From the NCBI RefSeq assembly GCF_000195975.1, contig NC_005070.1, forward strand, positions 360,001 to 392,000: DNA of 32,000 nucleotides, read 5' to 3'. The notes under the pieces were generated by a model that had not been told where the DNA came from, did no database searches, and saw nothing but the letters and a program-made list of their open reading frames with translations. Shown one piece after another: positions 5,136 through 32,000 of this stretch (its first letter is position 1; every line of letters starts with the position of its first letter). A program made the translations under genes and the position numbers. This DNA comes from Parasynechococcus marenigrum WH 8102 (GTDB taxonomy: Bacteria > Cyanobacteriota > Cyanobacteriia > PCC-6307 > Cyanobiaceae).

Positions 5136-5283
5136 TGCTGCGTCTGGATAATTGCAAAGAGCAAAATCTGGTGATGCCCCATAGACCCAATGATTTGAGT
5201 ATTTATACGTTAAAAAACTGTAGCCGTCAGGACATCTACGGGAGCTTCTTAGGGTTTGAATCGAGAAGAGATTCGTCGAAATC

Positions 5284-8839: not shown

Positions 8840-9439
8840 GTGTATGACGTTAGCCCTCTCCACGTTTTTCTCTGGATTTCGCCAGTATGTGCCAATAATT
8901 GTGAACTTTTAATATCTAACAATCGCGATGAGCTGGTGAGACTTCTTCGGGAAACTCCTAATAGTCTGGTCATTCCAAAACTTGTATCTGAAGTAGAGGA
9001 TAATTATCCTGCAGATCTGAGTTGTGGTTCAGATCTTTTGTATGGTGGTATTCGGTGGAGTAGCTCTACCCAGCCATTGCTCAGACAGGCACCCTGGCTG
9101 GAAAATCTGCAGATATTGGACCCTGTGACAAAAAGAGGTGGCAATATACTCCGTCTAAGAGGCCCTCTTGTAGCTGTGGGATCGGTTTTTGTGCAGGCTG
9201 ACTTAGATGTAATTAACTCAACAAGAGTCGAGGTTTGCTTCCGTAGAGGCGGTTGGATAGGTCCCCGTCACTCTGGTATCGGGCAAATTAAACTCTTAAA
9301 AGATGTTCGGCAGAGTTTTCCTGCTTGGCTTGATATGACCGTTTTGGATTCACAGCTGCGAATTTGTCGCGGTAATGCAGGAACAACTTTTGCTTTGTTG
9401 AGGCAGAGCGATAAGAGTGTTGCAGAATTCTTGGGCTGA
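8840..9439 (+). CDS. PAP/fibrillin family protein
   Basis: 199-aa ORF with a GTG start. The C-terminal block WLDMTVLDSQLRICRGNAGTTFALLRQ matches the fibrillin signature (LD.TYLD..lRi.RG..G..FvL). Confidence 0.72.
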   Translation: MYDVSPLHVFLWISPVCANNCELLISNNRDELVRLLRETPNSLVIPKLVSEVEDNYPADLSCGSDLLYGGIRWSSSTQPLLRQAPWLENLQILDPVTKRGGNILRLRGPLVAVGSVFVQADLDVINSTRVEVCFRRGGWIGPRHSGIGQIKLLKDVRQSFPAWLDMTVLDSQLRICRGNAGTTFALLRQSDKSVAEFLG

Positions 9440-9545
9440 TGTGTATGGGACCTGCCGCATTTTATTGTCAGTGCCTTCGGAACTGTAAATGGTTGCAATT
9501 GATGTCTTATGGAGTCAAAATAAGGATAGATTGTCTAACCAGCCA

Positions 9546-9884
9546 ATGCCGTTCATTAGTGTCAAGACCAATATTACCGATGTACAGACTCCAAATGGCC
9601 TTTTAAAGAAGCTTTCTGCTGCTCTTGCCACTGCCACGGGTAAGCCTGAGTCGTATGTAATGACGCTTTTGGACTCTGGTGTTCCAATGACATTCGCAGG
9701 TAGTGAAGAGCCTTGCGCTTATGTAGAGGTCAAATCAATCGGAGCTTTGACGCCTCCTGCAATGTCTGATCAATTTTGCGAATTGATCAAGTCGTCTTTA
9801 GGCATTCCGAAGGATCGTATTTATATTGGGTTTGACGATGTCAATGCTTCTAACTGGGGGTGGAATGGGCGTACTTTTGGCTGA
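9546..9884 (+). CDS. macrophage migration inhibitory factor (MIF)/tautomerase-family protein
   Basis: From the internal ATG the protein starts MPFISVKTN (catalytic Pro-1). It aligns by eye along MIF: GKPESYVMTLL..PMTFAGSEEPCAYVEVKSIG and IPKDRIYIGFDDVNASNWGWNGRTF. The track ORF starts at 9489. Confidence 0.9.
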   Translation: MPFISVKTNITDVQTPNGLLKKLSAALATATGKPESYVMTLLDSGVPMTFAGSEEPCAYVEVKSIGALTPPAMSDQFCELIKSSLGIPKDRIYIGFDDVNASNWGWNGRTFG

Positions 9885-11092: not shown

Positions 11093-11587
11093 ATGAAGCT
11101 CGTTCTATTTTTATTGCTGGGAAGCATTCTTGCAGCTCCTTCAGCCCACAGTCATGGAGGTCATGACCATGGACCTGGTGATGAAATAATGATTCCAGGC
11201 AGCAACAAAAATGGTATAGAAATCTATCTTTATAGAGATAAGTCATGCGGATGCTGCAAGAAGTGGGGTGCGCGGATGGTTGAAGGTGGATACAAAGTTG
11301 TTGACAATATATCTAACGATATAAATGATTTGAAGATCTCTGAGGGAATTTCTTCTTCATTAGCTTCTTGTCATACTGCTTTTGTGGAGGGCTACTTTAT
11401 TGAAGGTCATGTACCGGGCAAATCAATAGACAAGCTTTTGAGAGATATGCCTGATATTGCTGGCCTTTCGGTCCCAGGGATGCCGCTTGGTTCTCCAGGA
11501 ATGGAGACTTCACAGATGGCTACTCAGAACTATGAAGTTTTGGCTGTAGACTTCGATGGGAAAGCATCAGTATTTGATAGCTATTAG
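11093..11587 (+). CDS. DUF411 (CopG-like) periplasmic metal-binding protein
   Basis: 164 aa with a signal peptide and then a His-rich stretch HSHGGHDHGPGD. DUF411 hallmarks are present: SCGCCKKW, SCHTAFVEGYFIEGHVP, GLSVPGMPLGSPGME. The gene is AT-rich. Confidence 0.88.
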   Translation: MKLVLFLLLGSILAAPSAHSHGGHDHGPGDEIMIPGSNKNGIEIYLYRDKSCGCCKKWGARMVEGGYKVVDNISNDINDLKISEGISSSLASCHTAFVEGYFIEGHVPGKSIDKLLRDMPDIAGLSVPGMPLGSPGMETSQMATQNYEVLAVDFDGKASVFDSY

Positions 11588-13998: not shown

Positions 13999-14076
13999 GT
14001 TCAGGACATTGTCCGGCTGGTACAGAAGAATTTACGGCTTTCGTGCAATGTCTATCTTTCCTCCGCCTTATTTGCT

Positions 14077-14268
14077 GTGACTGAATACTCGCTTTATGAA
14101 CACAAACAGGCAACTATTGCTTTGCGTCAGCTTGAAGAATGTGGCGTGCCTTGTGATTGCCAAAGTTGTAAGTCGGCTTATCACCGCCTGATGAGTATTC
14201 AGCTTCAGATGAAGGAACGGGAACGGCGTTTTGCCAGGCCTTCACCACACTACATTCAATATGACTAG
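14077..14268 (+). CDS. hypothetical small Cys-containing protein
   Basis: 63-aa ORF with a GTG start, containing CGVPCDCQSCKSAYH. No family recognised. Confidence 0.4.
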   Translation: MTEYSLYEHKQATIALRQLEECGVPCDCQSCKSAYHRLMSIQLQMKERERRFARPSPHYIQYD

Positions 14269-14895
14269 AACATGTCAAATTTAGCCCCTCACGAAGCAGA
14301 AGTGTTTCTCGCAGAACTAATGCTGCACAAGCCTATGTTTTGCTCAAATCCAATGCGGTGTAGTCATTGTCGCCCGATACTTGATTGAATTGAGATTTGC
14401 AAATGGCATAAGGAATTACGTACCAGATACATCGTTGCGGCTTGATTTCCGGTGGAGTGGAACCACTCTAACAAAGCCGTATAGCCTTGTTCTGTTGCAG
14501 ATTTGGTCTTCAGAACGGTCGCAACGCATCTATTGAAGGCAAGCTAATAGGAGCAGATCGCTGCCATACGTGAATAGCTGGAGCGGCTTTAAACGGAGGA
14601 CAGTTTCTTGACTTTTGAGGAGTACGATGAGCGCCTACGAGCTGTTTGCTTCGTTGGAAAAGACGTATTTCCCACTTTTTGCTATACTAATTTATAAAAT
14701 CCAGGTGTCAAGAGCATGTATTTTCTTATTTTAGCGTTAGTTTTACTGTAATTATCTGTGAAAGTTGTATGCCTAGGTCTACATTGCGACTAAGTCATCA
14801 CATATGCCATCCATTCAGATTGTTGTGAGCAAACAAGCCTACGGCCTCATTCGTGAGGAGATAGATAACTTTTGTGTTATTAGATTGCCCGCAGT

Positions 14896-15657
14896 TTGGT
14901 TAGCTTTAATGTAAAGAGGATTGAATGTGCACGCATTTTGCCAGCCGCCCAGCCGCCTGATAATGAAATACAGCGACTAAACGCTCTCAATGAGTATAGA
15001 ATTCTTGGCACAAAGCCAGAGCAGTCATATGACGACATTACCAATATTGCTTCAAGTGTATGTTCAACCCCAATTGCGCTTCTCAGTTTAATTGATACTG
15101 ATAGACAGTGGTTTAAGTCAAAAGTAGGGGTAGAAATACAAGAGACACCCAGGGATTGGTCTTTTTGCGCCCACGCAATTCATTCATCCGACCCACTCAT
15201 AATCCCAGACGCACTGATGGATGATCGATTCCGTGACAATCCACTTGTATGTGGCGACCCGAATATAAGACTTTATGCAGGTTTTCCTCTTGAAAATAGT
15301 AAGGCATTGAGAGTGGGAACACTATGCGTCATTGATCGAGTACCTCGTCAATTAAACGATAAAGAATGCGGTGTTATGAAAGCTCTCGCAAGGCAGGTGG
15401 TTTCGTTTCTGGAGCTGAGAAAAAAATCGATTAACTTGATTGAATCTTTTTGCGCGCATACTGAAAACAATAGGATGATTTCTACATGCTCTTACTGCCG
15501 GAAAGCCCAAGATAAAAACGGGCACTGGATGCATCTTGACAAATATCTTTCTCTGAGATCAAATTTGAATTTCACTCATGGAATCTGCGATGCATGCATT
15601 GAGCAGCATTTTCCTGAGGTCCTTGATGCCTGGCAAACAGAAGAAGGACGTAATTAA
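14896..15657 (+). CDS. GAF-domain sensor protein with C-terminal CxxC...HGxCxxC module
   Basis: 253 aa. GAF blocks: NEIQRLNALNEYRIL, PIALLSLIDTDRQWFKSKVG, SFCAHAI, DDRFRDNPLV, IRLYAGFPL, VGTLCVID. The C-terminus reads CSYCRKAQDKNGHWMHLDKY...FTHGICDACIEQ. The start is uncertain because there is no in-frame ATG near the 5' end (the track uses TTG). Confidence 0.85.
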   Translation: MVSFNVKRIECARILPAAQPPDNEIQRLNALNEYRILGTKPEQSYDDITNIASSVCSTPIALLSLIDTDRQWFKSKVGVEIQETPRDWSFCAHAIHSSDPLIIPDALMDDRFRDNPLVCGDPNIRLYAGFPLENSKALRVGTLCVIDRVPRQLNDKECGVMKALARQVVSFLELRKKSINLIESFCAHTENNRMISTCSYCRKAQDKNGHWMHLDKYLSLRSNLNFTHGICDACIEQHFPEVLDAWQTEEGRN

Positions 15658-15815
15658 AAGCCCCCTACCCTGAGAGCTAGTTCCAGTGCTCCAAGTCCAA
15701 GTAGGAAAGTGCCACCAAGCAGAGCAAGCTCCTTAGGGTTTTGGGCCATTGGAAGAAGGGCAGAGCCCACAAGCAACGCACCAAAAAATCTAAAGGGAAT
15801 CTGTAGCTCCAACAT
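15654..15815 (-). CDS. possible 53-aa membrane peptide
   Basis: Hand-read: MLELQIPFRFFGALLVGSALLPMAQNPKELALLGGTFLLGLGALELALRVGGF (two hydrophobic helices). It is convergent with the GAF gene and overlaps its stop. Confidence 0.3.
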   Translation of the reverse strand: MLELQIPFRFFGALLVGSALLPMAQNPKELALLGGTFLLGLGALELALRVGGF

Positions 15816-15934
15816 TTAGGAGGATTACGATCTGGTCATCGTCGCACGCGGCTTTTACCCAACTTCATGAATTAAGCTTAATAACCTACTTCTATTGGCA
15901 AACTCCGCAAGAAATCTAAATACTCTGGGGAACT

Positions 15935-15958
15935 TAAAAGCCCCACCGAAGCAGGGCT
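15935..15958 (-). terminator. intrinsic terminator after the YRG-peptide genes
   Basis: Minus-strand RNA AGCCCUGC-UUCG-GUGGGGCU forms an 8-bp stem with two G-U pairs and a UUCG loop, followed by UUUAAGUU. It lies 6 nt after the stop at 15964. Confidence 0.55.
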
Positions 15959-15963
15959 GGTGA

Positions 15964-16116
15964 TCATCGTGCGTAGGTAGCGCCTCTGTAGACGAATAGT
16001 GGTCTCGTCACGGGAGGTGCTGCCAGTGATGCTTCCAGTCGTTGAACCACAGCTTCGGTTTTCGCGGTTTCACGGCAACGCACAAAAGCGGTCCCGTTGT
16101 AATAAAGGGAAGTCAT
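15964..16116 (-). CDS. small YRG-motif protein (DUF4278-like), paralogue of 19254..19430
   Basis: Hand-read 50 aa: MTSLYYNGTAFVRCRETAKTEAVVQRLEASLAAPPVTRPLFVYRGATYAR. It aligns with MTSLYWNGLAFAPVNKTAAKKEAVILRLETALMAPDATPSLKYRGISY. Confidence 0.55.
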   Translation of the reverse strand: MTSLYYNGTAFVRCRETAKTEAVVQRLEASLAAPPVTRPLFVYRGATYAR

Positions 16117-20426: not shown

Positions 20427-20648
20427 CTATAACCCTCGAGCCTGACGAAAGGCCGTTGAGTAAGGGAAGAGAAATCCCGTCTCAAGGGCGCCTAACTCTT
20501 GCTCTGCCGAATAAAGGCTCCTTGTGAAGCGGCAATGGTTTTCACAGTCGCAAACCAAGAAATGGCCGTCTTCTGTCCTTTGGATGGTGGCACCATGAGG
20601 AGTCTCAACTATGAGGTCAGATTTAGCCATGCTGATGTAACGCGACAA
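20427..20648 (-). CDS. hypothetical small protein
   Basis: 73-aa ORF (alternative start MAKSDLIV at 20630). It contains CDCENHC. Confidence 0.35.
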   Translation of the reverse strand: MSRYISMAKSDLIVETPHGATIQRTEDGHFLVCDCENHCRFTRSLYSAEQELGALETGFLFPYSTAFRQARGL

Positions 20649-20878
20649 CCATGTAATGGCCCTGGTAGTACTTAGGTTGGCGTATCTGACAACACCGATC
20701 TAGAAATCAGCTCGCTCCCATACCCGCCTTAGGTGCATACGGTGCTGCTATTGCTGGCATGAACCTGATTTACTAAGCGGTGCTGTCACGCGAGCTGGAC
20801 AGTATTCACAGCAATCGGCATCGGGGATACGGCAACCGCCACGGCAACACACTGCGCTAAGGCGGTAGGGCGAGAGCC

Positions 20879-21073
20879 TTAGAAGCAGCCATCTGTATTT
20901 AAATCAGCGGTCACCTTCAACAGATCCTGTGAAGGGACAGGATCAGAGACGGCATCTCTGAGGCGCTCCTGTACACGAGCCTTCGCGCGGAACATGGCAT
21001 CGCATCTCAGGTAATCAACCGGAGTGGTGCAGGCGCTGAGCAGCAGCGGCAGGATCAGGACAAGTCGATTCAT
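20879..21073 (-). CDS. small lipoprotein
   Basis: 64 aa with signal peptide and lipobox MNRLVLILPLLLSAC. Confidence 0.55.
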   Translation of the reverse strand: MNRLVLILPLLLSACTTPVDYLRCDAMFRAKARVQERLRDAVSDPVPSQDLLKVTADLNTDGCF

Positions 21074-21339
21074 GCCATCAGTGTCGCGTCAACGGCGTTA
21101 AGCGCACCAGTGGCAGCTCTTACTCCATTGCCAGCTCTTATGGCATTGGTCAGCTCACCGCCTAGTACGGCGTCTGAGCTGATGGCGGTGGTTCAGGACG
21201 CAGGCTGGATGCTGACGCGAAGAAAGCTGAGCGCAACGGTTGGGGTTATCGCCGCGGCAATACACGGCGCTGACCGTCGTAATCACTGTTACGGCTATCT
21301 CCACCGTGGGGCTGAGGGGCGTCTCCTTAGGTTGTTGTC

Positions 21340-21612
21340 ATGTCTAATGAAGCCCCTTTCAAGGAAGACGACCCTGCCAAGGCTGGTGGTGAGGGGTGGC
21401 TGGTGAATGAACAGCAACAGAAAGTGGTGCAGTTCAAACCCGATGAGCCAACGGCCCATGGGCAGTGGGTGATTCTGCGGACGTTTCACTGGCGGCCGCC
21501 GGATTACCCAATCCCGCAAACGAGAAGGCGGATGCTTCGTCACAACGCCATCGAGGCATGGAACACCATGAAAAAGACGGGCTGGCGGCCATGCCACCCA
21601 CCCGTCCGCTGA
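21340..21612 (+). CDS. hypothetical protein
   Basis: 90-aa ORF with balanced composition. It is preferred over the overlapping Ser/Pro/Arg-rich 153-aa minus ORF. Confidence 0.45.
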   Translation: MSNEAPFKEDDPAKAGGEGWLVNEQQQKVVQFKPDEPTAHGQWVILRTFHWRPPDYPIPQTRRRMLRHNAIEAWNTMKKTGWRPCHPPVR

Positions 21613-21628
21613 CCTTACGCAAGGATCC

Positions 21629-22033
21629 TCAGAGCGAGTCGGTGAGTTCGATGCCGTCGTAGTCCATTTCGAATAATTCAACTTGTAACTTCTCCTCCCC
21701 TTTGCTGTTTTCGGCGATGTGGGGGAGCTGGAGCAATTCGGGCATGCACTTTTCAATGGTAATCAGAATGGCTTCTGTGACCTGTTCTTCCGCCCACGTT
21801 TGGATGCACTTTGGGTGGTCTTCTTTCCAACTGCATTCGCCGGGTTCGAAATAGTCCCCGACCAGCTTTTTCCATCTGGCGTCGGTTAGGTCAGCGGTGA
21901 CGACGAAGGTCGCCGTGAACCTGATTTCGGCTTTGCGTTTCATGGTTTCCGTAATGGAGATTGCGATGTGCCAGCTGCCAAGGACCTCCACTGTTTGGTG
22001 GCGGGTCACATCCCTGGTGGTGCAGTTGATCAC
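21629..22033 (-). CDS. hypothetical protein
   Basis: 134-aa ORF with balanced composition. No family recognised. Confidence 0.5.
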   Translation of the reverse strand: MINCTTRDVTRHQTVEVLGSWHIAISITETMKRKAEIRFTATFVVTADLTDARWKKLVGDYFEPGECSWKEDHPKCIQTWAEEQVTEAILITIEKCMPELLQLPHIAENSKGEEKLQVELFEMDYDGIELTDSL

Positions 22034-22169
22034 GTCGATTCCGCCACGCCGCCACGCTCCAGCTGGGGTGTGATCCCCAGAAGGTGTGGCGTTGTGGCAT
22101 TTACGTCGAAAGCCCTCTTGACGGCAGCGTTCTGATCCGCCACGAAGCCGTGGCAGAACGTGGCCGCCG

Positions 22170-22346
22170 TTACCGGCGCCAGGTCCAGGTCAGCGGGTTG
22201 GTCTTCACCAGCTCGCCCTCAGCGTTCGCGAGGAGGTTGGACACCGCCTCGCCAAAGCGCCGGGCCCTGGCGTTGGCCTTGATCCAACGGTTCAGGCCCT
22301 TGCCTCTAAAGCCGTTCCCAGTTGGAAAGAACAACAAGAAAACCAA
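22170..22346 (-). CDS. possible 3' gene fragment (58 codons, TTG start only)
   Basis: Hand-read: ...TGNGFRGKGLNRWIKANARARRFGEAVSNLLANAEGELVKTNPLTWTWRR. The frame opens exactly at the GC-to-AT composition break near 22350. Confidence 0.25.
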   Translation of the reverse strand: MVFLLFFPTGNGFRGKGLNRWIKANARARRFGEAVSNLLANAEGELVKTNPLTWTWRR

Positions 22347-22561
22347 TCAACCGCAGAAAAGGCTTGGCGATGTTTTTGCAGATCAATCACATGCTGTGAA
22401 CGGACTACAACAAATGGCAGAGTATGTAAGATATGACTTTCAAGGTGATTTTCATTCTTCCTCGGATATTGTCTGAATTTGCTAGGGGCTTTTGGCGGAT
22501 TCTCAAGTGTGCGTATTAGGTGGGGCATCGTTTCATGAGTCAGTTCTATGTTGATCAGAAT

Positions 22562-23689
22562 TTACGGGATTGAATTTTGCCAGCTCGCGGAGGTGGTTTT
22601 GTAATCAAGGGTGTAAGGTGGAGTCACATATGCAAATGTATGATCGTTGACAAAGGTAATGTCTTCCAAGTCTGCCGTCCTGCTGGTCGATTGATCAGAG
22701 AACTTACTTTGATGTTGTTCTAATATTTTTTCGAGCTCAGCATTGTATCGCCAAGGCCCAAATGTTGAGATCACAGTGTGCTTGTTCTTTGGGAGTGATC
22801 TGAAGTCAATTTCTTTTGTGGTTTCCAGTAAGTTTGCAAAAAAGATAGACGATGATGGGGAAATGAAAAATCCGTTGCATATTCGCGGTGAATTCCATCT
22901 GAACATCAGTGTAGTTGTGCTGTTGCTTCGCAGTAGCGCCTTGAGAAGATGTTTTGTGTATCTTTGTGGGTATAAGTCTGAGTCGAGCCATATGCAGTCA
23001 TTTTTTTGAGCATATGCAACCCGAAATACGTCTGCCTCTATTGCGTAGTGAAAAGCTGTGGTAAAAGAAATAACAAGCTCTGGGCAATGGTTTTTGATGT
23101 AAGTCAAGGCGCTATCTTTGTTGAATAGTTTGATTGGAGCGACCCCGATTGATGTGAATATATTGTTCCAGATTGATGTTATCGCTTGTATTTGCTCTGG
23201 AGGCTTGCCTTGGCTCCAGTATTGAAATGGTTGCCAGGCGCAAGTTTTTTGATTGCCGTCGTAATGATCTTGTTGTGGATCTACCACGTTGTGTGATCGG
23301 AGCCAATGCTCTCTTTTGAGGCTGGTTTTAATTGTGAAAAGTGTTTTCCATAAGCGGTAGTGTTCTGGATCGCTAGGTGGTTGGCACGATTCGGTGGCTG
23401 GCGTTTCCAAATATGAATGAAGCTGTCCAAGTGACAGTTTGTCCTGCGCTTGACGTAGATATCCAGACCAGTCATGTGGATGATGAGCCACTAAACGTTG
23501 TGCATAGTCCAATGCCCTGACATAGTCGCCAGACGCGCGGCAAATATCTGATGCGAGGCTTAGTAAATCGATCTGGTTTGGTTGTTTATCGAGCTCGTTT
23601 TGCAGATTTCTTAATGCTTCGTTGTATTTTTGATTTCTTAGCAAGGCTTTGGTGCTTTCGTTGATTTCTTTGATGCCAACCATGATCAA
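22562..23689 (-). CDS. TPR-repeat plus DXD-motif glycosyltransferase (Gly_transf_sug / OCH1-like)
   Basis: 375 aa. The N-terminal ~90 aa is TPR-like. The C-terminal part carries FQYWSQGKPPEQI, ADVFRVAYA and WLDSDLY (DxD). AT content is markedly higher than in the flanks. Confidence 0.78.
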   Translation of the reverse strand: MIMVGIKEINESTKALLRNQKYNEALRNLQNELDKQPNQIDLLSLASDICRASGDYVRALDYAQRLVAHHPHDWSGYLRQAQDKLSLGQLHSYLETPATESCQPPSDPEHYRLWKTLFTIKTSLKREHWLRSHNVVDPQQDHYDGNQKTCAWQPFQYWSQGKPPEQIQAITSIWNNIFTSIGVAPIKLFNKDSALTYIKNHCPELVISFTTAFHYAIEADVFRVAYAQKNDCIWLDSDLYPQRYTKHLLKALLRSNSTTTLMFRWNSPRICNGFFISPSSSIFFANLLETTKEIDFRSLPKNKHTVISTFGPWRYNAELEKILEQHQSKFSDQSTSRTADLEDITFVNDHTFAYVTPPYTLDYKTTSASWQNSIP

Positions 23690-24300
23690 GGACTTGAGGA
23701 TGACCTTGGACGGAGGGATTTTGATCAGCCCGTCATCTAAATTTTATTGTATCAAGAGTGACGTTTCATACGGTGTCTGCTGCATGGCCGCAGTTAAGTT
23801 TGCCGTGTTTTGCATTGCATCGTTGTGGATGGGCAGCTTGTTGTTCGTAGGACGCGGCACAAACCCTTGCCATTGGCTTTGATTGTTAAGAGGGTTGCTC
23901 GTCTTCATAGCGGACAAGATGCAAGGTTGGGGTCGGTGCCATGTCAACCAGTGTTGATTAATGGCAGTGCTTTCTCATCGCTCCTCAACTTTCTTCCACA
24001 CACTTCTTTCAGCATCCACTGGTACGAGCTTGCACGTCATAGTCAACACGTCCCCCGGTGGTTTCTCTCCATCGTTACTGATTGGGATGGTGCCCACACC
24101 AAGCGGTTGTTTGATCTGTCCGCCAGCGACTGGATCCGCGCTTACACCTCTCACGCGCCAATGCCGGGCAGCTGAAGGGGCTTGCAGTGTTGCCCTCTGG
24201 TGGTCGATCTCACTTGGTGGTCAGGCTCAACCAGCAGGATGGGTCGGCTGTTCTCAGCCATTGGGTTGAAAGACGGTCACTCCGCTCAGTAGGGTGAACG

Positions 24301-24627
24301 TTGGTGAATTGCCTGGGCGAAAGAATGGCCGCTGATCACGCGCTTCTGAAGGAAGTCGCACTGGAGCTGTGGAACACGACCAAAAAGCTACGGCCTGGGT
24401 TGCCGAAGGCACCGCGCGCTCAGTTGGTGCTCAAAGCTTTGATGATCATTGGCGATGTCAGTGACCAACTGGAAGCAGCCATGGTGCTTGGCTTGATCGC
24501 CGAGCAGGAGCCGGATGATGCGTCCGATCAGCCTGAGGATGGAGAGGACAAAACTGTCGATCAACAGGAGACTGACAGCAGTCGCACGACGCCGCGGGTC
24601 GTCCGCAAGCGCTCCGGTTCGAGCTAA
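24301..24627 (+). CDS. hypothetical acidic protein
   Basis: 108-aa ORF with a TTG start (ATG at 24325, MAADHALL). It is convergent with the glycan operon. Confidence 0.4.
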   Translation: MVNCLGERMAADHALLKEVALELWNTTKKLRPGLPKAPRAQLVLKALMIIGDVSDQLEAAMVLGLIAEQEPDDASDQPEDGEDKTVDQQETDSSRTTPRVVRKRSGSS

Positions 24628-24669
24628 ATCAAGTGTCCCTATCACCCGGCCCAGTTCTGGGTGGTTGGT

Positions 24670-25374
24670 TTAGCTCAGCTGACCACGACTGAGATCCTGA
24701 AGGTCAACGTCGCCATAAAAAAGATCCAGATCATCGCCATAGCGCTCAACGACGAGTTGGACGAGGCCTGGGTCAGCAAAATACTGGCTCACATCACTGT
24801 GGTCGTCGCTCCGGCGACGATTTTTTTCGGGGAGGTTTCCAAGTGATGGAAGCCGCTCTCGTTTCATGCATGTTTCGAGCTGCTGCCAATCGGTCGCCAT
24901 GCTTTCCAGTCGGCCGATGAAGTTGGGTATGAGTTGCCCGTCGAGGCAAAGAATGCTGCTTTGGGGAAGCAAATGCACATCCACTGCAGCATCTACTGTC
25001 CCTGCAATGCACTCCAGAAAAGCAGGAAAGCCCATCTTGTGGCTGAGTCCCATGGCTTGCATTGGTCCTGGAACTTCATCCAATTCTAGAATCTTATTGT
25101 TGTAAGCCGAGACCAGTCGATCGAAAGGGTTGCGCACGAAGCTGAAGCTGAAGTGCGTGCCGCGACGCATACGTGCGGAGTATTTATCCGTCATGGATGT
25201 TTCTCCATGGGTGCCTTTGCTCCAGAAAGCATCTGAGGTTGTACGTGACCCTTGCTCTGGTGAAGTCGTCAGTAACCGACAGAGGCAGGCTTTGATCGAG
25301 CTGTTGGCAACTTTTGGGACTCGGCCATACAGCAAAGGCAGGTCACGAAACTGAATGTAATGACGCTCGTTCAC
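24670..25374 (-). CDS. sulfotransferase, family 2 (carbohydrate sulfotransferase-like)
   Basis: 234 aa. It has the 5'-PSB-like RVPKVANSSIK and the 3'-PB-like FSFVRNPFDRLVSAYNNK. It is a paralogue of 26210..26986. The GTG start overlaps the upstream stop (GTGA). Confidence 0.85.
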   Translation of the reverse strand: MNERHYIQFRDLPLLYGRVPKVANSSIKACLCRLLTTSPEQGSRTTSDAFWSKGTHGETSMTDKYSARMRRGTHFSFSFVRNPFDRLVSAYNNKILELDEVPGPMQAMGLSHKMGFPAFLECIAGTVDAAVDVHLLPQSSILCLDGQLIPNFIGRLESMATDWQQLETCMKRERLPSLGNLPEKNRRRSDDHSDVSQYFADPGLVQLVVERYGDDLDLFYGDVDLQDLSRGQLS

Positions 25375-26213
25375 AGCTCCCAGTAGTCGCTGGGTTTACC
25401 CATGTAAGCCAGCATCTGCTGAGCATCTGGCTCGACGTGACGCAACACTCGGCGTCTTAATCCGTTGTTCCATTCTGGTTTCTCAACGTAGCCACGTCCT
25501 TTTTCGCCAGCCTGGTTCTCCTTGGGTAAAGCGCCATTGGAATCCAGCAGTTTCTTGACCATCGGTCTGACACCCAGGAAGCGAATCATGCTTCGCAGCG
25601 AACGCTTTGGTGAGGTCAGCAGATCTTCAAAGGTCATGCAGTGGATCTGATCATCGGGGTAAAACCGACGGAATGCCGAAAGGCGCTGGTAATACATCGA
25701 ACAGCCCACGATCAGTTTGCGTAGGTGGCGGTCACGCATCAGTTCGCTGAAATCTGCGCAGTCCGGGTTGCGACCCCGGTAGTGGCGCCATTGGGAAACG
25801 ATTCGGTCTAGTGGGTGCCGGACGATATAAATCAACTTCAGATCCGGTAGATAGCGATGCATCAACTCTGGAGTTTTGCTGAATGAATGCAGTCCGCTGG
25901 CGTACATCGTGCTACCTTCTCCCCTCAACGCAAAATCTTTTCCCTTTTTGAATCTCGAGGCATACCAGTCCCAGCCTTTTTTGTAATAACGACCGAAGAA
26001 TTTGGGCTCCTTGGGTTTGCTGATGAAGATATCTGGATGTTGCGGCAGGATTGTGGTCAGTGTTGTTGTGGCGGATTTTGCGGCGCCAATAATGACGAAA
26101 TTAGGGAGAGAGTCACGATGTAGATCCACGATATCGGCATGCTTGCCTCGGAGACCTTTGCGGATCAGTTTCATGGGGCTTGGGGTGGATGGCATGACGT
26201 CAGTGTTGATCAA
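25371..26213 (-). CDS. sulfotransferase, family 1/3 type
   Basis: 280 aa with FVIIGAAKSATTTL (PAPS 5'-phosphosulfate loop), KEPKFF and IYIVRHPLDRIVSQW. The track start is TTG (TTGA overlap). Alternative ATG starts lie at 26195 and 26174. Confidence 0.87.
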   Translation of the reverse strand: MINTDVMPSTPSPMKLIRKGLRGKHADIVDLHRDSLPNFVIIGAAKSATTTLTTILPQHPDIFISKPKEPKFFGRYYKKGWDWYASRFKKGKDFALRGEGSTMYASGLHSFSKTPELMHRYLPDLKLIYIVRHPLDRIVSQWRHYRGRNPDCADFSELMRDRHLRKLIVGCSMYYQRLSAFRRFYPDDQIHCMTFEDLLTSPKRSLRSMIRFLGVRPMVKKLLDSNGALPKENQAGEKGRGYVEKPEWNNGLRRRVLRHVEPDAQQMLAYMGKPSDYWEL

Positions 26214-26986
26214 GCGCTGATTTGTACCCGTTGCCGTTTCTTGGCTTTGACCACACCTCGCTGGAGAGGGGGTAGCTTATTGAGTGGATGGCCATCGAGC
26301 AACAGGTCAAGGCTGTAGTCGCTGTAGAAACGTTTGAAGTCCTGCTCATATCGCTCGATGACCATGTCAATCAATGTTGTGCAATGGAACAAAACGCGAA
26401 TATCACTGCGCCCTTCACGACGGACGTTTTTCTGTGGAATAGCCCCGAGTGTCGGAAGACCCTCCAGTTTCATCCGGCGGCGTAAGCGTCTCCAATGGTC
26501 CGTCATATGTTCCATTCGACCGATGAATTTCGGCACCAATTTGTTGTCTGATAACAACATCTCAGCCTGTGGGCGAACATGATTGTCCATCAGGTCGGGG
26601 TCTGCCTTGCAGACGATCTCAATGAACTGGTCGAAAGCCATGCCATGCCGCAGACCCATTGTTTTCATGGGCAACGGCACATCATCAATTTCCAGAATTT
26701 TGTTGTTGTAAGACGCCACCAGTCGGTCGAATGGGTTGCGCACGAAGCTGAAACTGAAATGGCTGGAACGCAAGCGTCTGGCTTGCTGCGGTGTCACCAG
26801 CTGAGTTTCCCCGTGGGTGTGTTCTCGCCAGAATCGATCCGCCGTGGTCTTGATCCCACCGTCTGGACGCTGGACCAGAAATTTGCAGAGAGCGGATTTG
26901 ATGGAAGAGTTGGCTACTTTCGGTACACGCCCATACAGCAGGGGGATGTCGCGAAACAGGATGAAGTGCCGAGGTGACTTGCTCAT
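26210..26986 (-). CDS. sulfotransferase, family 2 (carbohydrate sulfotransferase-like)
   Basis: 258 aa with RVPKVANSSIK and FSFVRNPFDRLVASYNNK. The ATG overlaps the stop of the neuB-fusion gene (ATGA). Confidence 0.85.
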   Translation of the reverse strand: MSKSPRHFILFRDIPLLYGRVPKVANSSIKSALCKFLVQRPDGGIKTTADRFWREHTHGETQLVTPQQARRLRSSHFSFSFVRNPFDRLVASYNNKILEIDDVPLPMKTMGLRHGMAFDQFIEIVCKADPDLMDNHVRPQAEMLLSDNKLVPKFIGRMEHMTDHWRRLRRRMKLEGLPTLGAIPQKNVRREGRSDIRVLFHCTTLIDMVIERYEQDFKRFYSDYSLDLLLDGHPLNKLPPLQRGVVKAKKRQRVQISA

Positions 26987-29247
26987 GCCCCCGCCGCTGC
27001 TTCCAGGCGTTCAAGGGCCAGCCAGGCACCCTCACCCCCGTTCTTATGACCTTGCCAGATCTCCGGAATGAACGAGGCCTTTGGGCAGTGGTGATGAATC
27101 TGCTCGAACAACTGCACCCAGTCGATGTCACCGTCGTTGATCTGCAATCCTTCACCGTCAACATCTTTGGCATCGGCTAGATGCAGATGTGCTGTAAACG
27201 GCAGGATCTGATCGAGGAACTGACGGAATGGAATGTGCAGATGATTGCAGGCGAGTTTTGAGTGGGAGACATCCAGGCAGACCCTCATCCCCTGCTCCTT
27301 ACAGAACTGATGGATAAAGTCGGAATCCACAAACAGGTTGTGGAAGCGTTGCCCACCGAAGTGCCAGGGGAAGGGGGGCATCGTCTGTGGAATGATCTCC
27401 ACTTCACCAGCGGTGTTGAGTTGCTGCAGGCTCGCAATCAGCCGCTCGCGCAGGGGCTCACGCTCGCTGCGGGAGAGGTGATGGTGTTCAGAGAAGCCGC
27501 CCACATTGGTCACCAGCAACACTGGATCCGGGCACTGGAATCGGGTTCTGAGATCACTGGAGATGTCGATCACCCGCTGCAGTTCCGCGATCGAGTGGTC
27601 CCGATAGCTCGAATCTTCTGTGCAGAGGTCCAAGGTGTGGTCGCCGGCGAACAGTTCCGGTGCGTGAACCACCAGGCCGATGCCCTGCCGATTGGGTAAG
27701 ACCTGGTCAAGATCCACCTCAAGGTCCTTGTAGCTGAGGTGGATCTCCACCAGATCGAGGTTGCTGACCTGTGAGAACACCTTGATGTCGTGGTAACGAA
27801 CGGGCAGACCAAACGGTTGTTTGAACCGGTAGTGGCGTGGAGTCGCCGCCGGTGTTTCCAGATCGGATGGGAAGAACACCTCTCCCTGAGCCTTGGCCAC
27901 AGGTAAGCGTCGACCGATCAGATCGTTCAGCCGGTTGGGTTGCAGACCCTGGCCCGGGCTCTGGATGCGAACCATCGCTTCGGTGATCTCCGTCCCGGCC
28001 GGTACATCACAGGCCGCCACAAGGCTTTTAGCCAGCACCTCACGGTTCATCATCTCGCCCTGGCTGATGCTGCGTTCGCCGCCCTGGCCCATGGATTCCT
28101 CCACCCGCCGGATGCCCTGCATCATCTGAGCGAATTCATCCGGCAACAGGCTCACTTTGTGGTCGTTTCCCTCCATGCCCCGATCGATGGTGATGTGTTT
28201 TTCGATCACCGCTGCCCCCATCGCCACCGCCGCAATCGGCACCTCAATTCCCCGTTCATGACCGGAGTAGCCGACCGGTGCATCCGCCAATTCCTTCAGG
28301 CGCTCTAGATAGCGCAGGTTGACGTCCTTGAACGGCGTTGGATAGGTGGAATTGCAGTGCAGCAGCACGTAGTTCGCCCCCTCCTGCTGCAGGTGACGGA
28401 TGCCGGAGCGGATCTCCAGTTCGCTGGCCATGCCGGTGGAGCAGATCAGCGGTTTGCCGGTGGCGGCCAACTGGCTGATCAGGGCGTGATTGGTGAAGTC
28501 GGCGGAGGCCACCTTGAACCCCTCCATACCCCAGCCATTCAGCTTCTCCAGGCTGGTCTCATCCCAGGGGGTACAGAGCGGCACGAGCCCTTTTGAGGCG
28601 GCGTAGTCGAAACAGCGGAACAACTCATCGTCACTGAGCTGGAACCGTTCCAGCAGATCCAAGGTGTATTGGGTCCCCAGATCCGAGGCCATGTCGTTGC
28701 TGTCGCCGGCGTTGCTGTACAGCTTCGACATGTCCCTCATCTGGAACTTGGCGCAGTCCGCACCAGCCGAGTGGGCGGCATCGATCAGCTGTAGGGCAAT
28801 GCTGATATCGCCGTTGTGGTTGTTGCCGATCTCGGCGATCACGAAGCTCGGTTCGCCATCGCCGATGCGGCGGGAGCCCAACTGCAAACCGTCCGTGGCC
28901 GGTAATGCAACCGCCACGATCCGTCCGTGGCTGTCCAGCAGTGGTAGGGCAATGATCCGCGACGTCAGCAGGCTGGAAAGTTCTCCGGGGGGAGTGCCCT
29001 CTGCGGCGCTGCGGCAGTTGGGGTTCATCGCCGCCGTTACCGGACGGTTCAAATCGATGTCACCGCAACCGGCAATCCAGCGACGGAAATCGCCATCGGT
29101 AAGAACACCCTGCAAGATGCCGGACTCCGACACCACGAAAATCAGCCGCGACCGGTTGGCGGTGATCTTGCTGAGGGCGGAGAGGATTGTGTCTTCAGCG
29201 AATACGACGAACTGAGTGAAGTTCCTCTCGATCTGGATACCCTTCAC
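26983..29247 (-). CDS. neuB: CBS-pair / nonulosonic (sialic) acid synthase NeuB with SAF domain / xylose-isomerase-like TIM-barrel fusion protein
   Basis: 754 aa. The N-terminus is a CBS pair (LQGVLTDGDFRRWI ... IALPLLDSHGRIVAV). The NeuB core reads FVIAEIGNNHNGDISIALQLIDAAHSAGADCAKFQ ... LHCNSTYPTP ... GYSGHERG ... IEKHITID. The SAF-like segment reads KSLVAACDVPAGTEITEAMVRIQSPGQG. The C-terminal ~280 aa carry sugar-phosphate isomerase/AP-endonuclease-2 type motifs (VHAPE..., LDVSHSKL, HLHLADA). Confidence 0.92.
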   Translation of the reverse strand: MKGIQIERNFTQFVVFAEDTILSALSKITANRSRLIFVVSESGILQGVLTDGDFRRWIAGCGDIDLNRPVTAAMNPNCRSAAEGTPPGELSSLLTSRIIALPLLDSHGRIVAVALPATDGLQLGSRRIGDGEPSFVIAEIGNNHNGDISIALQLIDAAHSAGADCAKFQMRDMSKLYSNAGDSNDMASDLGTQYTLDLLERFQLSDDELFRCFDYAASKGLVPLCTPWDETSLEKLNGWGMEGFKVASADFTNHALISQLAATGKPLICSTGMASELEIRSGIRHLQQEGANYVLLHCNSTYPTPFKDVNLRYLERLKELADAPVGYSGHERGIEVPIAAVAMGAAVIEKHITIDRGMEGNDHKVSLLPDEFAQMMQGIRRVEESMGQGGERSISQGEMMNREVLAKSLVAACDVPAGTEITEAMVRIQSPGQGLQPNRLNDLIGRRLPVAKAQGEVFFPSDLETPAATPRHYRFKQPFGLPVRYHDIKVFSQVSNLDLVEIHLSYKDLEVDLDQVLPNRQGIGLVVHAPELFAGDHTLDLCTEDSSYRDHSIAELQRVIDISSDLRTRFQCPDPVLLVTNVGGFSEHHHLSRSEREPLRERLIASLQQLNTAGEVEIIPQTMPPFPWHFGGQRFHNLFVDSDFIHQFCKEQGMRVCLDVSHSKLACNHLHIPFRQFLDQILPFTAHLHLADAKDVDGEGLQINDGDIDWVQLFEQIHHHCPKASFIPEIWQGHKNGGEGAWLALERLEAAAGA

Positions 29248-29285
29248 AATTCGCCCCGCAGGTGCCTAAGCAGAACCTGTGGACA

Positions 29286-30599
29286 CTACCCCACGTCCCT
29301 GTAGGTCAGGCTCAGCAGCAGGCGCCTGATGATGCGGTTCCGTTGCTGTACTGCACGCAGCCGACGGGCCACATTGCGATGGGTCGGTCGCATCAGGCTT
29401 CCGAGTTGCAACAGGCTCTGGGCTTCCTCCCAATTCTTTTGACCGATGGCTTGCTCAGCGTCGCGTCGCAGCTGGGTGAAGCTGAGATTGGCGTTAGAGA
29501 GATATCCGGATGTTGTGCTGAGGCGTTCAGGTGGATCGGCACGCAGCTGGCCTAAAGCCTCGATCAGATCCACAGGGTCGAGATTCGTGCCGTATCCCAT
29601 CCAGGCCAGCCAGTCGGCGTCCGGCGAAGGCAGTGAACGATCAAGAGCATCAAGGTCCTCGACCTGATCAAGGCAGCGCCAAACACCCGAACCTGCAAAG
29701 ACATGGCTGCCATTGGCAGGATTGATGCCGAAATCGGCCATCACCAAAGGCCTGCAACCCATATCCAATGCGTCGAAGAAGGCGGTTGAGGAGATGGTGG
29801 CCGTCAACCTGGCCTGACGCAGCAAGTCGGGCAAAGGCCGATAGTCGAATCGCAGGTTGTCGGGGGGGTGGCCAAGGGCCTGCTGCAATGTGGTGCTGAT
29901 GTGGTCTGTGATGCTGTGGAAGGTTGCCTCCCCGGGGGCAATACGCGGTTTGATCAACACCTCCCAGTCCGGGGAACGCCGGGCAAGGTCCGCCAAAATC
30001 CGCACCATCTCAGCGCGGTCTGCAGGACTGGACGGCATCACCACCTGTTCTGCAAACACCAGTTGCTTGCGCCTCTGTTCTTGGTCGAGGAGCTGATCAT
30101 CTGAGATCTCCTGGCGGTGCAATCCGGTGAGAACCGTGCGCTGACCGGCAAACGGACTTCCCTCCAGCATTCGGTCCAGCGCCTCACGATCCCGAGGGCC
30201 ACTGAGGCAGACGAGGTCGTAACCCAGCCGCCAGCTCATGCCTTCCATGAACTTCTCCAGCACAACGCCGTTGAATCCGCAGAACAACAACGGTCGCTCA
30301 CGACTGGGCAGCAATCCCAACGCCAGTCGGAAATCACTGATTTTGCTGCCGGTGAGGTAGACGCCAATGGCATCGAAGTGGAGCAGCTCGGAGTGAGTCA
30401 GCAACTGCCCCATGTCCAGCCGCCAGAGATCACCAAGGGCAGCAGCCCGCTGCAGTATCGAATCGGGTGTTCCCTCACGCGGGATGGCGTTGATGGTGAC
30501 CTGAACGTTGAGGTCCGACGGGAAGCGACATAGCGCTTCACAGGCCAACAATTGGCTGTCGCTGTCTCCGATCAGCAGCAGTTTGAACGGATCGTTCAT
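29286..30599 (-). CDS. uncharacterised protein, paralogue family member 3 (possible two-Rossmann glycosyltransferase-like)
   Basis: 437 aa, clearly paralogous to 30596..31651. Aligned segments: LLLIGDSDSQLLACEAL vs ILLVSDDDSSALACQLL; SPDWEVLIKPR vs SPEWSVVIQRD; ISSTAFFDALDMGCRPLVMADFGI vs VSSPWSLTAMAWGRPTLLIGDYGI; FAGSG vs FFGSG. It has an extra C-terminal ~90 aa with a basic tail. Confidence 0.8.
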   Translation of the reverse strand: MNDPFKLLLIGDSDSQLLACEALCRFPSDLNVQVTINAIPREGTPDSILQRAAALGDLWRLDMGQLLTHSELLHFDAIGVYLTGSKISDFRLALGLLPSRERPLLFCGFNGVVLEKFMEGMSWRLGYDLVCLSGPRDREALDRMLEGSPFAGQRTVLTGLHRQEISDDQLLDQEQRRKQLVFAEQVVMPSSPADRAEMVRILADLARRSPDWEVLIKPRIAPGEATFHSITDHISTTLQQALGHPPDNLRFDYRPLPDLLRQARLTATISSTAFFDALDMGCRPLVMADFGINPANGSHVFAGSGVWRCLDQVEDLDALDRSLPSPDADWLAWMGYGTNLDPVDLIEALGQLRADPPERLSTTSGYLSNANLSFTQLRRDAEQAIGQKNWEEAQSLLQLGSLMRPTHRNVARRLRAVQQRNRIIRRLLLSLTYRDVG

Positions 30600-31651
30600 G
30601 GCAGCAACTCCTCCAGGCGGCGGATCAGGCGCGCGGCGCCGTCATGCACCCCCCAGCCCATGGACTGCAGCCAGGACGTGTTGACGGGTGGCACATCCAG
30701 CAGTTGATCCAAGTGGTCGATCGACTGCAGGCGATGCATCAGTCCGCTGCCGAAGAACGTCGTTGTGCCTTGATCGGAGTGGATGCCGTAATCGCCGATG
30801 AGCAGGGTTGGCCGGCCCCAGGCCATGGCGGTCAGGCTCCAGGGGGAGCTGACGCAGAGACAGGCACTGCAGCTAGCCAGCTGGGTCAAGAGCTGACCAG
30901 GTGCACCAAACACCAGATTGTCGGGGAAGGTCCAATCGCTGGATTGGAACTTAGAGATCCAAGGCTGACCTTTCTCCCAGGCGTGGTCGCGTTGGATCAC
31001 AACCGACCACTCGGGGGACGTTTCGGCCCAGCGGATCAATTGCCGCAGCAACTGTGCTTTGGCACCGATCTGGGTGGGGATGGCCTCCTGAACCAAGGCG
31101 AGCAGGGTATGAGGTGGTTGTGGTGTTCCCCCATTGAGAGCTCCGAGGGGAGGACGTTCCGGAGAAAACCAATGCCCGATCGCCTCGATTGATGGACTGG
31201 CCACGCTCTCGGGCCAGAACTGTGTGATCGCTTCAAGCTCCCGTCGCTGACGATCTCCTGGCACCACCAACAGATCACAGCATTGGCTGTCGCATAGCTG
31301 ACGCACCAGGCTGTCGCCGAGGGAGGCCTGGAGAGGACCGCTGAACACCAGAGCTGGCCGCACACCACGCTGCCGTGCGAGGTCCCGGTGAGCATGGGTA
31401 AAGCGCTCAAGTTGGTCGCTGCGACGGATGAACAACCCAACGGCGCTGGCGGACTCCAACAGCTCATGGCCCAGCAGATCCATCAGGGTCAGTGGGATTT
31501 GCGGGGTGACGGAAGGCAGAGGGCTGTCTCGGCGTGAGGACAGTGCCGGTCCAATGGTCAGACAGGTCTGGCCGCAGCGTTCCAGCTGCTGTTGCAGCAG
31601 CTGGCAGGCCAGAGCGCTGCTGTCGTCATCACTGACCAGAAGGATCGTCAT
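30596..31651 (-). CDS. uncharacterised protein, paralogue family member 2
   Basis: 351 aa from the ATG at 31651, which overlaps the upstream stop (ATGA). The track GTG start at 31666 is less likely. The downstream ATGA overlap is at 30596-30599. Confidence 0.8.
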   Translation of the reverse strand: MTILLVSDDDSSALACQLLQQQLERCGQTCLTIGPALSSRRDSPLPSVTPQIPLTLMDLLGHELLESASAVGLFIRRSDQLERFTHAHRDLARQRGVRPALVFSGPLQASLGDSLVRQLCDSQCCDLLVVPGDRQRRELEAITQFWPESVASPSIEAIGHWFSPERPPLGALNGGTPQPPHTLLALVQEAIPTQIGAKAQLLRQLIRWAETSPEWSVVIQRDHAWEKGQPWISKFQSSDWTFPDNLVFGAPGQLLTQLASCSACLCVSSPWSLTAMAWGRPTLLIGDYGIHSDQGTTTFFGSGLMHRLQSIDHLDQLLDVPPVNTSWLQSMGWGVHDGAARLIRRLEELLP

Positions 31652-32000
31652 CGCTCCCTTAGCCACCGAGACAACCAGCCGAAGCCCACCAGCCCATCGC
31701 GGAGTCGGCGCAGAAGGGTGCGGGTTTTATGCCGTTTTTGCTGGCTGGAGCGCGCGCCACCACTGCTGAGCATGCGGCGGCCGCCGTGACGGATGGCATA
31801 GGTCTGCCAGCTGCGGCTGCCCCAGCTGCCTGGTCCAAGGCCATCGGTTGGCAACGGGGGCCGGTCGCCATGCAGTTGTTTCAACAGGGCTGACAGAAAG
31901 ATCTCCTGCCCCTCGGGTTGGTGGCCGTGGCGTTGCAACCAGTCGACCTTGTGAACGGGTGTGAACGGGTCACGACAGATTGCGGCGAAGTCCGCAACGG
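31648..32000 (-). CDS. uncharacterised protein, paralogue family member 1 (C-terminal part; gene runs off the right edge)
   Basis: The frame is open from base 32000. The C-terminal block PVHKVDWLQRHGHQPEGQEIFLSALLKQLHGDRPP aligns with PDADWLAWMGYGTNLDPVDLIEALGQLRADPP (member 3) and NTSWLQSMGWG (member 2). It has a basic tail like member 3. Confidence 0.7.
   Translation of the reverse strand, partial: VADFAAICRDPFTPVHKVDWLQRHGHQPEGQEIFLSALLKQLHGDRPPLPTDGLGPGSWGSRSWQTYAIRHGGRRMLSSGGARSSQQKRHKTRTLLRRLRDGLVGFGWLSRWLRER

Follow-up and report, generated by a model that had tools for sequence, protein, structure and literature searches.

A conserved trio of ancient DUF6716 paralogues, candidate nonulosonate transferases with a divergent partner, in a kps-type capsule locus of picocyanobacteria

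Results

Three overlapping genes at one end of the window belong to the DUF6716 family

The stretch of DNA analyzed here, hereafter called the window, comprises 32,000 nucleotides of the Parasynechococcus marenigrum WH 8102 genome (NC_005070.1, positions 360,001 to 392,000). At its far end lie three consecutive genes on the reverse strand, designated m3, m2, and m1 in the order of transcription, whose products all belong to the Pfam family PF20471 (DUF6716, annotated as “putative glycosyltransferase”). A sequence-only reading of the window had described these genes as paralogues that could not be assigned to any family by motif. The lack of a family turned out to be incorrect, as a Pfam search matches m1 with 180.5 bits (E = 5.6e-53), m2 with 62.4 bits (E = 4.7e-17), and full-length m3 with 197.3 bits (E = 4.6e-58). 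All three proteins span the whole PF20471 model and score far above its curated gathering threshold of 27 bits. No NCBIfam model was found for m1, m2, or m3. The family as a whole is represented by 694 clusters at 50% identity when searched with HMMER at E ≤ 1e-3 against 1.84 billion representative proteins.

The relationship between m1 and m2 is evident from a BLASTP comparison, which yields 25% identity over 314 residues (E = 5e-11). Only the end of m3 lies within the window. This 116-amino-acid fragment is marginally similar to m1 (E = 0.03) and has no Pfam match of its own, so the window alone argues weakly for a third paralogue. The full-length sequence of m3 was obtained from a metagenome scaffold of 725 kb (L001) that is 100% identical to the window over positions 20596 to 32000, and on which the gene is complete at L001:8697-10004 and encodes 435 amino acids. 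Full-length m3 exhibits 30% identity to m1 (E = 2e-28) and is also recognizably similar to m2 (E = 3e-7). These comparisons, along with two ATGA stop/start overlaps, uphold the view that three consecutive, overlapping paralogues are present (Table 1). The longest open reading frame (ORF) that includes m2 begins further out than its ATG, at a GTG at position 31666.

Two further predictions concerned shared sequence features. An N-terminal block, an (I/V)SS motif, and a G(R/C)P block had been proposed as common to all three proteins, and within the window they can be made out in just two of the members. A basic C-terminal extension had been noted on m1 and m3 and as missing from m2, and this is the case, with net charges of +8 for the m1 extension and +13 for that of m3.

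Table 1. Features of the capsule operon within the window, with positions given from the first nucleotide of the window
Feature	Position	Strand	Description
m1 (DUF6716 paralogue)	29286-30599	-	437 aa (amino acids); GT-B core at residues 1-355, followed by a basic helical tail
m2 (divergent DUF6716 paralogue)	30596-31651	-	351 aa counted from ATG; no tail
m3 (DUF6716 paralogue)	31648-32000	-	C-terminal 116 codons; the 435-aa gene extends past the end of the window
m2/m1 stop/start overlap	30596-30599	-	ATGA, GCCATGAAC
m3/m2 stop/start overlap	31648-31651	-	ATGA, GCGATGACG
m1 C-terminal extension	29292-29480	-	Residues 374-436; four predicted helices, TPR-like, net charge +8 (AlphaFold2 secondary structure)
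m1 ISST	29784-29795	-	Residues 269-272; loop after C-domain strand 4; S271 invariant
m1 motif IKPRIAPGEATFH	29916-29954	-	Residues 216-228; loop after C-domain Rossmann strand 2; putative nucleotide-phosphate site
m1 QVVMP	30033-30047	-	Residues 185-189; Q and P invariant
m2 QRD	30986-30994	-	Residues 220-222, in place of the family K-P-R; charge reversal at putative donor site
Nonulosonate synthase fusion	26983-29247	-	754 aa; CBS-NeuB-SAF-xylose-isomerase-like TIM barrel (AP_endonuc_2); Pfam and NCBIfam matches
Sulfotransferase gene 1	26210-26986	-	4-nt overlap with upstream neighbor
Sulfotransferase gene 2	25371-26213	-	4-nt overlap with upstream neighbor
Sulfotransferase gene 3	24670-25374	-	4-nt overlap with upstream neighbor

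The proteins are predicted to adopt a GT-B fold

AlphaFold2 models of m1 and m2 were built on an alignment of 60 family sequences. The m1 model has a predicted local distance difference test score (pLDDT) of 91.6 and a predicted template modeling score (pTM) of 0.83, and the corresponding values for m2 are 92.6 and 0.90. When compared with the PDB by Foldseek at E ≤ 1e-3, the models return 229 matches for m1 and 246 for m2. The 50 listed matches for each protein are all GT-B enzymes, including antibiotic glycosyltransferases of family GT1, uridine diphosphate N-acetylglucosamine (UDP-GlcNAc) 2-epimerases, OGT, and MurG. Thus, both models are canonical GT-B folds, which bears out an earlier guess that these proteins might be GT-B-like. 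The highest TM-scores (0.55 to 0.64) are to UDP-GlcNAc 2-epimerases, a likeness that is generic for GT-B structures. Sequence searches of the PDB, whether started from m1 by itself or from the family profile, yielded only a marginal match in the C-domain to the GT1 enzyme CalG4 (E = 0.07), wherein an LTHGTT segment aligns with the ISST sequence of m1. The helical region that follows the m1 core is matched by Pfam models of the tetratricopeptide repeat (TPR) in 9 of the 60 family members.

The DUF6716 genes are part of a kps-type capsule locus

The scaffold that carries the complete m3 gene also reveals the DNA that lies beyond the window. Following purB, it carries a kpsD-like exporter gene on its minus strand, then plus-strand genes for an acyltransferase of the Gcn5-related N-acetyltransferase (GNAT) type, an acyl carrier protein (ACP), and a ketosynthase, and then, again on the minus strand, a kpsS-acyltransferase fusion and kpsC. 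These are followed by a plus-strand operon that consists of a neuA-like cytidylyltransferase gene, m3, m2, m1, a gene for a CBS-NeuB-SAF-TIM-barrel fusion, and three sulfotransferase genes. The locus is of the kps type, with the DUF6716 operon forming a “region 2”-like unit that is divergent from the kpsC, kpsS, and kpsD-like genes.

The cytidylyltransferase gene lies beyond the window, 26 bp upstream of m3, so the triplet does not stand at the head of its operon, as had been proposed, but occupies the second to fourth positions. The encoded enzyme is of the PseF/NeuA type, matching with 125 bits over its full length. Assignment as KpsU/KdsB, the enzyme type that would produce cytidine monophosphate (CMP)-linked 3-deoxy-D-manno-octulosonate (Kdo), was ruled out, as KdsB models reach at most 66 bits and cover only the N-terminal half.

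On the other side of the triplet, the NeuB fusion gene begins 38 nt after m1. Its product is conserved, at 70 to 91% identity across picocyanobacteria, and it scores 312 bits against the NeuB_NnaB model, which is under the cut-off of that model. Its TIM-barrel domain may be the source of the aldose substrate. The sulfotransferases, which belong in order to Sulfotransfer_2, Sulfotransfer_1/3, and Sulfotransfer_2, are encoded by the final genes of the operon. Other than KpsC and KpsS, no additional glycosyltransferase candidates for the polymer were found in the locus or among the scanned ORFs of the window. The nonulosonate pathway is also the sole activated-sugar pathway encoded in the picocyanobacterial locus.

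Two observations concern genes that border this operon. Upstream, at L001:1480-5951, KpsS is fused to a PlsC-type acyltransferase, and the ACP, ketosynthase, and Acetyltransf_5 (GNAT) genes adjoin it. This arrangement is kept in all picocyanobacterial loci, and it suggests that the capsule has a lipid anchor dedicated to it. Just downstream of the operon, a gene at positions 22562 to 23689 of the window (reverse strand) encodes a 375-amino-acid TPR protein. This protein may be a functional partner, because DUF6716 genes in other lineages (L069 and L074) immediately precede genes for TPR proteins or carry TPR tails.

The paralogues are ancient and recur with nonulosonate genes

To describe the distribution of these genes, one genome per GTDB species was scanned with a profile built from a 15-sequence alignment, which identified 61 DUF6716 loci. 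The full gene order, including m3-m2-m1, is kept in about 45 genomes of picocyanobacteria, among them members of Synechococcus, Cyanobium, Vulcanococcus, and Aphanothece, and the closest scanned genome is that of Synechococcus sp. AG-670-A05, in which m1 is 82% identical. The 4-nt overlap of m2 with m1 recurs in 40 related loci and that of m3 with m2 in 26, with gaps of 0 to 14 nt in most of the remainder. Formation of a hetero-oligomer by the three paralogues is compatible with these conserved overlaps.

Three clades emerge from a neighbor-joining tree of 153 DUF6716 sequences. Loci from Alphaproteobacteria and Myxococcota carry two copies, one from the m1 clade and one from the m3 clade, which flank genes for a plain NeuB and a NeuA. 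The fact that these organisms carry just these two copies shows that the split between m1 and m3 is old and that the pair is the recurrent unit. In the proteobacterial cassettes, NeuA carries a fused phosphatase domain that resembles KdsC and KDN-9-phosphate phosphatase. A recent local duplication of the triplet was also considered and can be ruled out, since the members of each clade are orthologues throughout the picocyanobacteria and Proteobacteria have the m1/m3 split as well. Thus, the three genes are ancient paralogues within DUF6716.

Seven diverse family members were looked up to survey wider genomic contexts. In a Wzy-type locus, a single DUF6716 gene resides beside genes for NeuB and a NeuA-phosphatase fusion. 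A parallel to the picocyanobacterial capsule locus is found on an unrelated metagenome contig (L071), which carries KpsMT-like ABC transporter genes and Poly_export together with a NeuA-phosphatase fusion, NeuB, two DUF6716 genes, two Sulfotransfer_2 genes, and a GT29-like gene. Another member (L073) is accompanied by NeuB, NeuA, GT8, pyruvyl transferases, and a GT29-like gene. The two GT29-like genes (L071:15015-16940 and L073:13733-15361) match Pfam Glyco_transf_29, a sialyltransferase family of the eukaryotic type, and in a Croceicoccus locus a Maf/MptE-like gene occurs together with DUF6716. In another context, a DUF6716 gene follows directly after one for a 137-amino-acid TagD-like cytidylyltransferase, with a TPR protein gene alongside (L069:407-1990), and a 916-amino-acid protein combines a DUF6716 domain with a polysaccharide pyruvyl transferase (L068:1256-4006). 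Neither neuA nor neuB occurs within 8 kb of two of the seven members. Both the genome scan and the locus look-ups therefore support the previously suggested link to nonulosonic acid genes, which is strong and conserved across phyla; the association with cytidylyltransferases is frequent, not universal.

Among the scanned loci, two came from metagenome-assembled genomes labeled Bradyrhizobium ivorense (L026) and Mesorhizobium carmichaelinearum (L047). The former looks like mis-binning or contamination, because it exhibits the complete picocyanobacterial gene order at 55 to 72% identity. The latter carries a rearranged version of the locus with no neuB nearby.

m2 lacks residues that are conserved at the putative donor site

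In enzymes with GT-B topology, the loops that follow strands 2 and 4 of the C-domain bind the nucleotide and phosphate of the donor. In m1, the first of these loops would contain K217, R219, E224, T226, and H228, which are 83 to 98% conserved across the family, and the second would contain the ISST sequence. The proline of the QVVMP sequence (P189) is invariant in 60 of 60 family members. Both m1 and m3 retain essentially all of the family-conserved residues, which comprise R124, D128, D137, Q185, P189, R195, K217, R219, E224, T226, H228, N248, S270-S271-T272, D289, and W330. An x-E119-G120 sequence is likewise maintained, with E at about 100% in the m1 and m3 clades, and G at 100% in the m3 clade and G or A in the m1 clade. 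The differences that are fixed between these two clades, described as N-domain, are D12 versus C, W123 versus D, and H233 versus E.

The m2 clade presents a different pattern. Among 37 orthologues, the replacements are D137Q (100%), K217Q (94%), R219D (100%), A273W (97%), and T272P (70%), and the segment that includes T226 and H228 is deleted. The E119-G120 pair is also lost in this clade. m2 nonetheless retains D128, Q185, P189, N248, S271, D289, and W330. On the basis of GT-B topology and predicted secondary structure, the lost residues would be located in the donor-site loops, making m2 a candidate pseudo-glycosyltransferase subunit that may have lost catalysis.

Ratios of nonsynonymous to synonymous substitution (dN/dS) relative to the orthologues of strain AG-670-A05 are 0.10 for m3, 0.12 for m2, and 0.10 for m1. 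Thus, m2 evolves under purifying selection. Its interpretation as a decaying pseudogene was rejected, given a reading frame that is intact in at least 37 genomes, this dN/dS value, a set of conserved residues of its own, and a confidently predicted fold.

Other features of the window

The window also contains housekeeping or accessory genes that are unrelated to the capsule operon. They include those for a Peripla_BP_5 solute-binding protein (7336-8616), a PAP_fibrillin protein (8840-9439), a MIF/tautomerase protein (9489-9884), and a DUF411 protein (11093-11587). A tyrosine-recombinase-like ORF on the forward strand (3372-4283) matches positions 18 to 118 of the 172 positions of the catalytic-domain model. 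Patches of low G+C content (0.44, versus about 0.55 to 0.60 elsewhere) occur at 5001-6000 and 14001-16000, which suggests that island-like, horizontally acquired DNA is present beside the capsule locus. No tRNA genes were found in the window.

Discussion

A model for capsule assembly by the DUF6716 proteins

The reading that we prefer, and to which we assign a probability of roughly one half, is that m1 and m3 are CMP-nonulosonate transferases with different acceptors, which together with a non-catalytic m2 would build a sulfated acidic capsule. This reading draws on the genomic context of the three genes. Both m3 and m1 would be catalytically competent and would use CMP-nonulosonic acid provided by the flanking NeuB and NeuA to extend a chain on the Kdo-lipid primer that is built by KpsS and KpsC. 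Their shared donor pocket would be formed by Q185 and P189, K217-P-R219, E224 with T226 and H228, and S270-S271-T272. The clade-specific differences between m1 and m3 at positions 12, 123, and 233 suggest two different acceptor steps, which could correspond to initiation and elongation or to two alternating linkages. The basic, TPR-like tails of m1 and m3 probably tether these proteins to the membrane or to the export complex. With its remodeled, charge-reversed donor site and its lack of a tail, m2 would most likely serve as a non-catalytic partner whose ratio to the other subunits is fixed through translational coupling. The three sulfotransferases encoded downstream would subsequently attach O-sulfate to the product.

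The sequence-only reading had already raised the possibility that these proteins supply a missing nonulosonic acid transferase or polymerase. The predicted fold, the association with neuA and neuB, and the lack of a rival glycosyltransferase in the locus are in agreement with this proposal, and it is from these observations that we infer the enzymatic role.

Several observations weigh against this reading. The family offers no characterized member, and literature searches for DUF6716 or PF20471 retrieved no publication. Searches that paired Synechococcus with nonulosonic acid, or that addressed teichulosonic acid or Kdn transferases, returned nothing specific. Among the listed Foldseek matches there are no sialyltransferases, only generic GT-B proteins. 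At the level of sequence motifs, DUF6716 has neither the HP motif of CMP-dependent sialyl- and Kdo-transferases nor the QXXXD nucleophile of KpsC, and the location of its conserved residues in a donor cleft is a placement suggested by GT-B topology. Genes for kpsM, kpsT, and kpsE were not seen in the 21 kb examined. Moreover, separate candidate nonulosonate transferases share the DUF6716 loci of three lineages (L071, L073, and Croceicoccus), and neither neuA nor neuB lies near some family members, including one that is located beside a TagD-like cytidylyltransferase.

Alternative roles for the three paralogues

One alternative is that all three paralogues are active and differ in linkage or donor, with the pocket of m2 retuned for another substrate. 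The low dN/dS value of m2, its confident GT-B fold, and the family residues that it keeps are consistent with an active enzyme, and its substitutions (Q137, Q217, D219, and W273) are conserved, as would be expected for a new specificity. The substitutions themselves argue in the other direction, because the residues that m2 has lost are the most conserved basic and polar ones of the nucleotide-phosphate loops. Positive charge is eliminated or inverted by the changes at positions 217 and 219, m2 has a deletion of the T226/H228 segment, and E119-G120 is lost. Furthermore, a second nucleotide-sugar pathway is not encoded in the locus, and two copies suffice in the proteobacterial loci. We therefore consider three active enzymes to be quite unlikely. 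The same loss of donor-site residues, which is fixed across the m2 clade, makes the three linkage specificities that had been proposed to explain the triplication improbable.

A second alternative is that DUF6716 proteins are capsule glycosyltransferases or phosphotransferases whose donor is not a nonulosonate, in which case they might add another residue onto the nonulosonate or use a CDP-linked donor in the manner of TagF. This possibility gains from the TagD-like cytidylyltransferase beside one member, from the fusion of another to a polysaccharide pyruvyl transferase, from the co-occurrence of GT29-like or Maf-like candidate sialyltransferases in three loci, and from the absence of the HP motif. 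It is difficult to reconcile with the picocyanobacterial locus, where the only activated-sugar pathway is that for nonulosonate and where, KpsC and KpsS aside, the DUF6716 proteins are the sole candidates for a transferase. In addition, no match to Glyphos_transf or TagF was found at E ≤ 1 for the window proteins. On balance, a donor other than nonulosonate seems improbable to us.

That DUF6716 proteins instead supply the substrate of NeuB, as hydrolyzing epimerases or hydrolases resembling NeuC or PseG, is highly improbable, for although the best Foldseek TM-scores are to UDP-GlcNAc 2-epimerases, the locus has no neuC-type gene, and Epimerase_2 is weakly matched by 2 of 60 members (E ≥ 0.014), the epimerase likeness is generic for GT-B, m1, m2, and m3 themselves do not match Epimerase_2, Capsule_synth is a far more common secondary match (11 of 60 members), the NeuA-phosphatase fusion of the proteobacterial cassettes implies a sugar-phosphate route without NeuC, and two or three TPR-tailed paralogues are hard to reconcile with a precursor step.

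Implications for marine capsules

Our preferred assignment of m1 and m3 as CMP-nonulosonate transferases, accompanied by a non-catalytic m2, can be extended to the family at large. DUF6716 would then be a new CMP-nonulosonate-dependent GT-B polymerase family, and the picocyanobacterial proteins would be a three-paralogue machine, with two catalytic subunits and one pseudo subunit, that produces a sulfated capsule resembling polysialic acid, whereas Alphaproteobacteria and Myxococcota would operate a two-paralogue version. In this complete form the proposal is tentative, and we regard it as rather doubtful.

To our knowledge, nonulosonic acid transferases are poorly known outside a few pathogen families. 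DUF6716 is a moderately large family of 694 clusters whose link to neuA and neuB extends over several phyla, although the canonical motifs of sialyltransferases are missing from it. Should our reading be correct, DUF6716 would define a new CAZy-type family and would provide the polymerase that the kps-like capsule of marine Synechococcus has so far been missing. The reading would also predict a sulfated nonulosonate polymer on the surface of one of the most abundant phototrophs on Earth, and a surface of this kind would matter for grazing, phage adsorption, and marine organic carbon. The presence of kps-like capsule gene clusters in Synechococcus is known from metagenome ecology, where their distribution tracks iron-replete versus iron-poor ocean regions, in a study that does not treat the DUF6716 genes (PMC10119275). 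The Pfam family itself was already known; what is new here is the conserved arrangement of three DUF6716 paralogues, including a clade with a degenerate putative donor site.

Comparison with known systems

The proposed role of m2 has a counterpart in streptococcal GtfB, a non-catalytic GT-B paralogue that is encoded beside the active GtfA and is its obligate partner. These proteins are from an unrelated family, and m2 is likened to GtfB by its residue pattern.

Another parallel is offered by the TagF-like polymerases Cps1B, Cps7D, and CslB, which belong to ABC-transporter capsule systems and likewise combine a GT-B-type module with helices of the TPR type that extend it. In the group 2 capsule polymerase Cps1B, the TPR domain mediates oligomerization (PMC5974469). 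In contrast, the DUF6716 tail is short (about 60 amino acids versus about 400), and the activities would be distributed over separate paralogues rather than contained in one multidomain protein.

Sialyltransferases of families GT38 (NeuS/SiaD), GT52, and GT80 share with DUF6716 the GT-B fold and an occurrence in group 2 capsule loci with adjoining neuA and neuB. They are defined by an HP motif in the C-domain and by a D/E-D/E-G motif in the N-domain that contains the catalytic base (PMC2169525). The x-E119-G120 sequence in the N-domain of m1 and m3 resembles the latter motif, a similarity of this pair alone at the level of sequence. A conserved HP is absent from the DUF6716 alignment, in which the analogous loop carries K-P-R. 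Furthermore, no sialyltransferase Pfam family is found among the matches reported at E ≤ 1.

A weak but recurring similarity is that to KpsC and KpsS, whose capsule loci are likewise of the ABC-transporter type and which use an ulosonic acid in its CMP-activated form. Capsule_synth is the sole recurrent secondary Pfam match in the family, always below threshold and with a best E value of 0.002; m1 scores 17.8 bits (E = 0.0024) relative to a threshold of 20 bits. Alignment by hhalign of the family profile with the halves of a cyanobacterial KpsC and with KpsS gives probabilities of 68%, 87%, and 59% (E = 4e-6 to 1e-4), which is weak profile similarity of the C-domains. In the alignments with KpsC, the FAEQ185xxxP189 segment of DUF6716 pairs with the GQVESD segment, IKPR with K-x-HP, TVSST with VTSQ or LTSL, and GxHxFxGSGL with GxPFYAGWGLT. 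Retaining beta-Kdo transferases carry an invariant QXXXD motif whose Asp is the nucleophile (PMC10148158). Unlike KpsC/KpsS and WbbB/KrkA (GT107, GT99, and GT140), DUF6716 has an invariant Pro in place of this nucleophilic Asp. The HP histidine of KpsC and KpsS is also absent, its position being occupied by K217-P218-R219, and DUF6716 differs further in being predicted as canonical GT-B by Foldseek. Membership in the KpsC/KpsS type or in a known sialyltransferase family, which had been considered for these proteins, is thus contradicted by the defining motifs. The absence of these residues marks DUF6716 as a separate GT-B family, one that by its sequence would be related to CMP-ulosonate transferases distantly at best.

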